A stretch of 63,418 bases of DNA, filler included, from Reclinomonas americana ATCC 50394 (Eukaryota), in assembly GCA_048213135.1 (NCBI GenBank). It is 10 parts of 6 records of this genome, joined end to end, with 100 filler letters (N's around TTAATTAATTAA, not from the genome) between each part and the next. Parts side by side here need not be neighbours in the genome. Positions count along the whole stretch, not along the records: positions 16,143 to 29,130 come from AFZH01015342.1; 9 more parts are not named here. One strand, written 5' to 3'. The first letter of the stretch is position 1; every line of letters begins with the position of its first letter. Under the pieces are notes generated by a model, which was not told the origin of the DNA, did not search any database, and saw only the letters and a program-made list of their open reading frames with translations. Positions 22,933 through 26,072 of this stretch are shown here, in pieces. Made by a program: the position numbers and the translations under genes.

Positions 22933-25900
22933 ATGGTGGAGAACGAGCGCGTATCGCGTGTGTGGCTCACGGCGGAGACTGTGACGACGGTGGCGCTGGC
23001 AGTCTCCACGCGCATTCTGCTCAAGACGGTGCTCTCGGGTGGAATGGTCAGTTGGACAACTTTTTTGGTGCAGAAGGATGAAAAGGCGATTAGGCGGCGC
23101 CTAAGTGCGCGCCTGTGAGCGCCTTTGCTCATGCTGCACACTCACTCATTCACTCACTCACTCACATTCAGCAGCCACATTGCCATTCTGCAACTCGGTC
23201 GCACAATCATTTCTCCTCTTCACACTCACGCCCTCACTCATTCGCACACACACACACACACATATACACAACGCTCTCTCACTCACTCATTCGCTCCCAT
23301 CAGTCACCCTGTCATCATTCGCTCACTCTCACTCCTGAATCATTATCTCCTTCAGTATCACAGTCTCCGTGTCATCAGTCACTCACTCTCACTCCTAAAT
23401 CATCTCTCCTTCACTCTCACATCAGCACTCTGTCACCAGTGACTCACTCGCTGTCTCACGCACACTCACTCTCTCACTCATTCGCTCTCATCAGTCGCAT
23501 CTTCGTCACGCTCATTCTCGCACCTTCACTCTTTCTCCTCTTCTCCCTCCGTTCCCCTTCTCCCTCCGTTCCCCTCCTTCTCCCCCCTTCTCTCGCTCTC
23601 TCTCATCGCCAACAAGAACCAATTTGCGATCGCCCTCCTTTTGTTGATATTGCAGCGTTTGCATGTCACGTTCCTGCTGCAATGGATGACGGTGGCACTG
23701 GCACCAGTGTTCTACGCGGTCGCGGTGTTGCGCAAGAGCAAGTCTGCATCGCCCAGGTGCGTTGTTCTCGCCTCCGAAAAAGTAGACACTCGTGACTGAA
23801 AATCACACACTGGCGCAGCGATGCGAAGAAGGCAGCGGAGAAAGGTGGAGAGGGCGAGTCGCAGCAGAAGAAGAGTGGCGTGTCGTCGTGGCGGTTTGCC
23901 ATTGTTGCCGCACTGGAGACCACAGCCTCGGTGCGTTCGCTTGTCTATCTCGAATCTTGTCTACTTTTTCCTCACTGTCGCCGCTGCAGCTCATGTTTGT
24001 GTGCTCCTCGGCACACCTCTCCGGCCCACTGGCCTCCCTCCTGCAGCAAGCCATTGTGCCCATCACGATGGCCCTGTCGTACATGATGCTGCGCGAAAAG
24101 TACACCAGCGCGCAGCTGACCGGCGCCTTTATCATCCTCGTCGGCATCGGCATTGTCATGGAGCCGCACGTCAGCGGGACGTCGCTCACCCTCTCCGTCC
24201 TTCCGTGGGCGCTGCTGTGTCTGGCCAGCACTGTGCCGATGGCGCTGGCCTCCATTGTGAAGCAAATGATTTTCGAGGACGAGGTTATTGGAGTGTTCTT
24301 TATTGTCGCGCCTCGCCTGCATGCTCATCCGCTCGTTTCGCAGATGGACGTGTGGGAGTTGAATGCTCGCGTGTGCTCGTGGCAGGTGGTGCTCGGACTG
24401 CTGACGCTGCCGATCACGGCCTCGTTTGACGGTGTGGCGCTCGCCGACATTCCGTCGGGACTGTTGCGTGTGGCTGCTGGTGCTAGCTTGCAAGTGTGCG
24501 TGGAGTGCGTGGTGCTGACGCGTAGTTGTGAATCAGGTGGCACGGCTTCGAGTGCTACGCGTTTGGTGTCTCCGGTAGTGCAGAGGCTTCGGTGAGTGTG
24601 GCGGCTGTTTGTATGTACCTCGCTCCTCATTCTCACCGCTTGCCAGTGCGCTGGCGCCTTCTGGAGCGTCAACATGTACCTGCTGGTGCTCGTGCTGGTG
24701 AATGTGTCACTGACGGCCTTGCTTCGTGACGGAGGCGCCGGGCTGGCGGCCATTGTCAGCACACTCTCGTTCCCGCTCACCAACATTGCCTTCGCGCTGC
24801 CGTTTCGTTCATCCGACCACAGATCTCTCTCTCTCTCTCTCCCTATTGACATCTCGCTCAACTATTCTGAGCAGTGCAATCATGGGCGAGCATGCGCAGC
24901 GACTGAACGGATCCGACATTCTCGGCCTGTCCTTCATCCTGGCTGGCCTCGTGTACTACCGATTCCACAAGACCTTTTTCACGTCCACTCAATCGGTGAG
25001 CCGTTTGCGATCATCCATGATGTGCCGTGCAGCAGCTCACTTACTCTGCCGCAGATCGTGTCGCCGATACCAACATTGAAACGTGCAGCGTACTACGCGT
25101 ACCCGACCGTGGAGTTGATGACGGTGATGCCGGAGGAGGACCTGGAGACGGTGGTCAATCTGGAGATTGGTCACAAGAAGCACGGCTTTATTCTGTACAC
25201 CAGTTGAGGCTCGCGTTGATGCCTGTTTGTGCATTTTTCATCCCTCTCTCAATCGTGTGGCAGGTTCGCCCACCGACGTCCGTGGTGTCTCATTCGATTG
25301 TGTGATGTTTGCGCACGGCTCGGTGCGGATGCGCTTCACGGATGAACGCAGTTGCGTGCACACTCTCTGCATCCCGATCAGCTCTGGCGAGTTGCCTGGT
25401 GTCTGAGTTTGCTTGTTTGAAGCAGCACGTCACAACCTTAACAAGCCGGCCATGGTACACCTGAACAATATTCTGCCGCCGACCGGTGTCAATGTGGAGG
25501 CCTTCCGCGAGTACATTCGTGTGGAGCTCGAGAAGCAGGATGTAAGTTCAGAGCACTGTTTCCTTCCTTCTCCCCGATGCTGATAGATTCGGTGCAGGCC
25601 GTGTTTGTGGACCTCACCGATGAGGGCGAGTTGATCTTTGGCGTGCCGGACTTTGACCACGGGTATGGCTTCTCGCCGACCGCAGACGCCAACGTGGAGG
25701 AGCTGGTGGTGCGTCTGTGTCCTGCATATTTTGCCTACTGAGAGAATTGCTGAACGCATTTTTGTCTATGTAGCGCGCCGCGCTGGCAAAAGAGGAGGCT
25801 GCCACCGAGCACCACTATGAGAAGCCGTCTCCGGTTCCGTCAATCCAGCAGTTGCTGGCATCAGAGCCGGCTCCCGAGCCAGTCGAGCCGCCGCCGCAAG

Positions 25901-26072
25901 AGCCACCAGCAGCGGAGAAGGAAACGTCGACCTCCGCCGCATCAGCTGCGTCGTCCGACAAGGACGGTGGAGTACGGTGAGTCGGGGGAAGTCCTGCTAC
26001 TCGTGTATTTCTGTTGGTGCCTGACTTTTGGTGTATGCACGCAGGCGTCGGCGGCGACGGACGGGTGACTGA
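22933..26072 (+). CDS. CRT-like (chloroquine-resistance-transporter/CLT, DMT superfamily) transporter fused to a C-terminal Nup98/Nup145-type peptidase-S59-like domain
   Basis: CRT-like LLQQAIVPITMALSYMMLREKYTSAQLTGAFIILVGI, STVPMALASIVKQMIFE, the luminal Cys pair GFEC...CAGA, and AFALPAIMG...DILGLSFILAGLVYYRF. These splice in frame to the S59-like exons (25055-25202, 25264-25350, ~25423-25541, 25598-). The product ends RRRRRRTGD*. Confidence 0.75.

Follow-up and report, generated by a model that had tools for sequence, protein, structure and literature searches.

Within a 63,418-nt stretch of DNA (filler included; hereafter the window) from Reclinomonas americana ATCC 50394 (assembly GCA_048213135.1), we identified a gene at positions 22933-26072 of the plus strand that encodes a complete CRT-like transporter and appears to continue, in the same reading frame, into a domain resembling the Nup98-type autoproteolytic domain (APD), peptidase family S59. 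With somewhat better than even confidence, we read the locus as one gene whose product joins a CRT-like carrier to a cytosolic, non-cleaving domain distantly related to the S59 domains of Nup98, Nup145N and Nup116, followed by an acidic tail and perhaps a poly-arginine end. Judged from the sequence, this combination is probably a new domain architecture made of two known families. The original prediction had proposed a CRT-like transporter fused to a catalytically dead Nup98-type domain with a basic tail.

The part of the window that carries the gene (16,143-29,130) is record AFZH01015342.1. Exons were placed from open reading frame (ORF) fragments and sequence, joined at GT..AG introns, and scored by a codon-usage log-likelihood (LLR) trained on eight ORFs in the window that have Pfam support. 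The gene comprises 14 exons that form a single reading frame of 587 amino acids (aa), from an ATG at 22933 to a stop codon whose last nucleotide is 26072. All 13 introns are of the GT..AG type; 12 of them measure 55-75 nt and intron 1 measures 609 nt. For each of exons 1-12 the LLR was above zero in the frame used and below zero in the other two. Per codon, exons 9-12 reached 0.28-0.53; seven transporter exons lay at 0.31-0.50, and the eighth, exon 6 with 18 codons, at 0.04. The codon score was near zero or below in 12 of the 13 introns, and reached +14.6 in one frame of intron 1. Intron 1 (23047-23655) is rich in CTCA/CACA low-complexity repeats, and its +14.6 frame matched no Pfam family; the repeats, not an overlooked exon, probably explain this score. 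Antisense ORFs across the gene matched no Pfam family either. The peptides quoted in the original prediction lie where it had put them, with GLVYYRF from 24945, IPTLKR from 25067 and DFD at 25649-25657. The gene is laid out as follows.

22933-23046 (plus strand): exon 1, aa 1-38; opens with the first in-frame ATG after a stop and ends at 23046; LLR +18.7; CRT-like profile from aa 7.
23656-23756 (plus strand): exon 2, aa 39-71; LLR +10.3; unbroken profile alignment.
23819-23930 (plus strand): exon 3, aa 72-109; LLR +11.7; inside the profile alignment.
23990-24283 (plus strand): exon 4, aa 110-207; CRT-like core; PF08627 E 7.6e-24, 84.7 bits, profile positions 84-178 of 335.
24344-24462 (plus strand): exon 5, aa 208-246; PF08627 E 0.013, profile positions 182-211; donor GTTGCG.
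24537-24591 (plus strand): exon 6, aa 247-265; WHGFECYAFG, aligned to the GlkC..g columns of the family; LLR +0.7.
24647-24801 (plus strand): exon 7, aa 266-316; PF08627 E 3.3e-7, 30.1 bits, profile positions 256-306.
24875-24995 (plus strand): exon 8, aa 317-357; last transmembrane (TM) helix, ..GLVYYRF; PF08627 E 0.013, profile positions 309-335 of 335.
24996-25054 (plus strand): intron 8, the predicted fusion junction; 59 nt, GTGAGC..CAG, phase 0.
25055-25202 (plus strand): exon 9, aa 358-406; a 10-aa linker, then AAYYAYP..IGHKKHGFILYT, the putative start of the Nup98-APD-like domain; LLR +21.5.
25264-25350 (plus strand): exon 10, aa 407-435; LLR +7.9.
25426-25541 (plus strand): exon 11, aa 436-474; LLR +17.0; alternative in-frame acceptor at 25423.
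25598-25708 (plus strand): exon 12, aa 475-511; putative domain end ..GELIFGVPDFDHGYGF..; LLR +19.5.
25649-25657 (plus strand): D-F-D codons within exon 12; proposed counterpart of Nup98 H-F-S.
25774-25976 (plus strand): exon 13, aa 512-578; acidic tail rich in Pro, Ala, Glu and Ser; LLR +4.2.
26045-26072 (plus strand): exon 14, uncertain; RRRRRTGD and stop, preceded by a 68-nt GTGAGT..CAG intron; LLR -6.2.

At exon 11 a tandem CAGCAG acceptor (25423/25426) allows two in-frame forms that differ by one alanine. An ORF on the opposite strand begins about 150 nt past the stop of the gene, the genome being compact.

The transporter part was established from two kinds of profile evidence. Exons 4, 5, 7 and 8 matched PF08627 co-linearly (profile positions 84-178, 182-211, 256-306 and 309-335), and two of them singly exceeded the gathering score of the family (26.9 bits), namely exon 4 with 84.7 and exon 7 with 30.1 bits. 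With a threshold of E<=0.001, a search with exon 4 among 1.84 billion representatives returned 367 proteins; identity over this exon was 34-45% for the best of them. From these relatives we picked 26 that are full-length CRT-like proteins by Pfam and built a local profile, to which aa 7-355 of the spliced protein aligned with 272.9 bits (E 2e-85), unbroken at the exon joints. Together, the co-linear matches and this alignment settle the CRT-like identity of exons 1-8, which we regard as certain at the level of sequence and which bears out the transporter half of the original prediction; since the alignment to the 26 proteins is gap-free, it also validates the unusual donors GTTGCG and GTTTCG. 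Hydrophobic segments are distributed along aa 45-319. As in PfCRT, plant CLT1-3 and their protist homologues, the match to the family is full-length and co-linear, but the N-terminal extension is unusually short here, with 6 aa before the profile start, and the carrier is followed by an extension of 230 aa.

The family alignment stops at aa 355, near ..GLVYYRF (aa ~350). Exon 8 ends at 24995 and exon 9 opens in phase 0, so that the predicted splice of intron 8 keeps the frame; branch-like CTCAC/CTTAC motifs lie at -19/-15 in this intron, as they do in introns 3-6. Upstream in the frame of exon 9 the sole ATG sits inside transporter exon 7, and the first ATGs of exon 9 itself (..ELMTVM..) lie beyond residue 11 of the exon, where the PF04096 match described below begins. 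The downstream domain is thus not preceded by an ATG of its own, which makes a separate downstream gene unlikely. Taken with the coding-type codon usage of exons 9-12, the phase-0 intron and the missing ATG agree with the in-frame splice that had been postulated from the GLVYYRF exon to the downstream exons, and the prediction that transporter and downstream exons form one fused gene is well supported. If intron 8 is left unspliced, the frame of exon 8 runs for 28 more residues to a stop at 25077-25079 and yields a protein of 385 aa; with intron 8 retained, a stand-alone transporter isoform is therefore conceivable.

Pfam and Protein Data Bank (PDB) searches of the C-terminal region were made exon by exon, with single-exon peptides. 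PF04096 (Nucleoporin2, the Nup98-96 autopeptidase S59) matched exon 9 with E 0.003 and 18.2 bits, aligning residues 11-48 to positions 2-39 of the 148-position profile; no other of the 24,736 Pfam models reached E<=10 with a peptide from the five C-terminal exons. Allowing for the nine peptides scanned, the value becomes approximately 0.03. Using phmmer, the best PDB match of exon 9 was the Nup116 APD (3nf5), at the corresponding end of the domain. The span from AAYYAYP to DFDHGYG comprises about 136 aa, near the length of the PF04096 profile (148), and the co-linear motifs IG..G.G.I.F, LN..A.V.L and F.V..F..YG of the original prediction are in keeping with APD sequences. These features make it likely that the downstream domain is homologous to S59, and they point weakly to a Nup98-type identity of the domain in exons 9-12.

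The D-F-D codons in exon 12 (25649-25657) may occupy the position of H-F-S in Nup98. No Ser, Thr or Cys follows the Phe of this triplet and no His precedes it, and neither HF[STC] nor any HF occurs in the whole 587-aa protein. The cleavage motif is thus certainly absent, as claimed with the label catalytically dead; the missing HF[S/T] means that the S59-like domain would be unable to cut itself. Self-cleavage by a non-canonical route, which would free the acidic tail, strikes us as extremely improbable; what suggests it is solely the HGYGF after the putative site, which resembles the SKYG after the Nup98 site. Set against this are the residues flanking the Phe and the standing of HF[S/T] as the conserved cleavage motif (bioRxiv 10.64898/2026.09.13.750810). 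The whole protein contains two FG dipeptides and no GLFG or FG repeat region; the transporter precedes the domain instead.

Beyond the domain, aa 504-578 consist to 64% of Pro, Glu, Ser, Ala and Thr and carry a net charge of -10. Exon 13, which encodes most of this segment, had no Pfam match, and its LLR of +4.2 in the frame used, with the other two negative, is weakly coding-like. Exon 14 (28 nt) scored -6.2 in the frame used and +0.3 and -1.6 in the others; because of this negative score it is the splice signals that carry the basic tail. The tail proposed earlier is therefore uncertain: when spliced, the frame does end ...GVRRRRRRTGD, but codon usage gives no coding signal for the exon that encodes the arginines. 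With intron 13 unspliced, the protein would end ...DKDGGVR at a TGA at 25978.

Several results weigh against the reading of the locus as a carrier fused to an S59 domain. The 18.2 bits of the PF04096 match lie below the Pfam cut-off of 28.4 and come from one exon of four, while exons 10, 11 and 12 singly gave no S59 match in Pfam or PDB. The match to Nup116 3nf5 is non-significant (E 0.51). AlphaFold2 modelling of exon 9 alone had low confidence (pLDDT 51.8) and showed a hairpin at residues 31-48; a language-model atlas gave no usable match for this exon. Run exon by exon, the Pfam profiles placed CRT-like exons 4 and 7 above the cut-off but Nucleoporin2 on exon 9 only, below it, and the Nup98/S59 identity originally predicted is weakly supported. 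Moreover, the intron 8 splice is a prediction from sequence, and the last exon lacks a coding signal.

The search for relatives of the same architecture adds to these points. The best 150 of the 367 exon 4 relatives were compared by phmmer, and the 48 of them with at least 440 aa were scanned with Pfam, leaving 102 without a Pfam scan. The C-terminal 230 aa matched none of the 150 (best E 0.94), and PF04096 was present in none of the 48; it was likewise found in none of four proteins from a profile search with the CRT-like alignment, and in none of three by phmmer. No PF04096-like domain therefore follows the transporter in any of the 48 and 4 relatives scanned, and no ortholog of the fused protein was found in the sequence collections. 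Word-based protein searches with exon 9 and exon 4 (longer proteins) gave no relatives, nor did metagenome contigs match exons 9 and 4 or prokaryote genome contigs exon 9. Within the window, tblastn detected no paralogue of the gene, other matches having E values of at least 0.84. We found no report of a CRT-like/Nup98 fusion in the literature covered, which excludes subscription journals. The statement that no such fusion is known accordingly holds for what was scanned and read; with an identity of only about 40% for the best relatives, the lineage is poorly sampled in the collections searched, and as these searches cover eukaryotes poorly, the absence of fused relatives says little about closer kin.

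Two other explanations of the downstream exons have to be considered. The fusion gene may be real and its C-terminal domain an unrelated, lineage-specific cytosolic one that matched PF04096 in exon 9 by chance, which we consider rather unlikely. The sub-threshold score covers 38 of 148 profile positions, exons 10-12 are unmatched, the atlas offers nothing usable for exon 9, and unannotated C-terminal tails of 100-300 aa are common among CRT-like proteins. All this would fit such a domain, whereas the E value of 0.003 already takes account of the 24,736 models, the family had been named before it was tested, the match falls at the start of the profile and opens a domain whose length is about right, and an independent PDB search puts an APD first. 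If the S59 resemblance fails on the spliced sequence, what would be left is a carrier of the CRT-like family whose tail is lineage-specific.

The gene model itself could instead be at fault, with the transporter ending at 25077-25079 and exons 9-13 belonging to a separate gene or to a decaying copy of a Nup98-96 fragment. Such an artefact would be in line with the predicted nature of the intron 8 splice, with the plausible 385-aa stand-alone transporter that read-through would give, with the lack of fused relatives among the CRT-like proteins scanned, and with a compact genome in which an opposite-strand ORF follows so closely. It is quite improbable in our view, given that the domain has no ATG and the gap is only 59 nt, and that exons 9-12 have what a decaying copy would not keep: four more introns in phase, frames that stay open and coding-type codon usage.

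On the favoured reading of a single fused gene, the product would be a 10-TM-type CRT-like carrier of the drug/metabolite-transporter superfamily. About 20 residues past its last helix would follow a cytosolic, non-cleaving beta-sandwich of the S59 type (~136 aa), then an acidic disordered segment of about 75 residues and perhaps six arginines at the end. The cytosolic side is assigned by analogy with PfCRT, whose C-terminus faces the cytosol. PfCRT transports peptides, and by family analogy the substrate of the carrier may be of the thiol or peptide type. By nucleoporin analogy, the S59-like domain could serve as a protein-binding or targeting module that places or regulates a small-solute carrier; we infer, as the most economical reading, that it binds a partner protein and thereby recruits the carrier or puts it in place.

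The known S59 proteins share some of these features. Yeast Nup116 and Nup100 are not known to self-cleave and carry an S59-type module, used for anchoring at the pore, on the C-terminal side, where the putative one lies here (3nf5 being the best PDB match of exon 9), but they are soluble GLFG-repeat nucleoporins, in contrast to an integral membrane carrier with two FG dipeptides and no repeats. The Nup98-Nup96/Nup145 precursor likewise has PF04096, matched weakly here at the domain start, and an acidic stretch after the domain, whereas the present protein has no HF[S/T], no Nup96-like part and no FG repeats. Nup98-96 has to be cleaved in order to localise correctly, yet trypanosomes lack this cleavage (PMC8421043). 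The APD of Nup145N binds the beta-propeller of Nup82 and thereby tethers that complex (PMC5653651). It is conceivable by analogy that the protein is an integral nuclear-envelope or pore-membrane protein, its Nup98-type domain docking the carrier on the Nup82/88 or Nup96/145C scaffold, with the disordered acidic linker and poly-arginine helping to sort it to the nuclear membrane; tethering of the carrier to the nuclear pore is speculation, and we hold this extension to be distinctly unlikely.

The remainder of the window (GC-rich at ~0.57, the region hosting the transporter gene included) also has genes with introns, and a Pfam scan detected families typical of eukaryotes in it, namely Hsp70, eukaryotic SelB, PI3-kinase, Kelch and GT2 glycosyltransferases. 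An ORF at 6633-8600 (plus strand) contains eukaryotic SelB domain III, GTP_EFTU and EFTU_D2, and the organism thus probably has selenocysteine machinery. Three intron-free ORFs of 323-350 aa on the minus strand (14725-15717, 16602-17654 and 21290-22261), each with a GT2 glycosyltransferase domain, seem to form a small cluster of paralogues immediately upstream of the transporter gene and in divergent orientation to it. At 2858-4330 (plus strand) and 4699-5565 (minus strand), a minus-strand match to Hsp70 lies near a strong plus-strand match to 'NAD-GH' (PF10712), which we take to be the antisense reading of Hsp70 genes; an Hsp70 gene probably spans both stretches. The PI3/PI4-kinase catalytic and PI3K C2 domains that extend over several ORF fragments at 9000-12060 (minus strand) identify a multi-exon PI3K gene of class I/II type. 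At 51-55 kb lie three ORFs of 260 aa each that had the look of repeats but proved to be unrelated. A run of N at ~55.1-55.4 kb, inside 54630-55412, marks an assembly gap that gives X in translation. Between 56001 and 60000 the GC content is 0.37-0.44, compared with ~0.57 elsewhere, and this stretch has CT-dinucleotide runs and ORFs on both strands without a Pfam match.

To our knowledge, the S59 domain has been described almost only from nucleoporins of the Nup98 family, in which it fastens FG proteins to the scaffold of the pore. An S59 module on a polytopic metabolite carrier would, if true, represent a reuse of the domain outside FG nucleoporins, and the protein would be a candidate pore-membrane anchor in a poorly sampled eukaryote. 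It would then bear on how pores are fastened to the membrane in divergent protists, a question touched upon in PMC8421043 and bioRxiv 10.64898/2026.09.13.750810. Should the domain indeed dock at the pore, the protein would represent a novel type of transmembrane nucleoporin in a lineage that may lack the canonical pore-membrane proteins.

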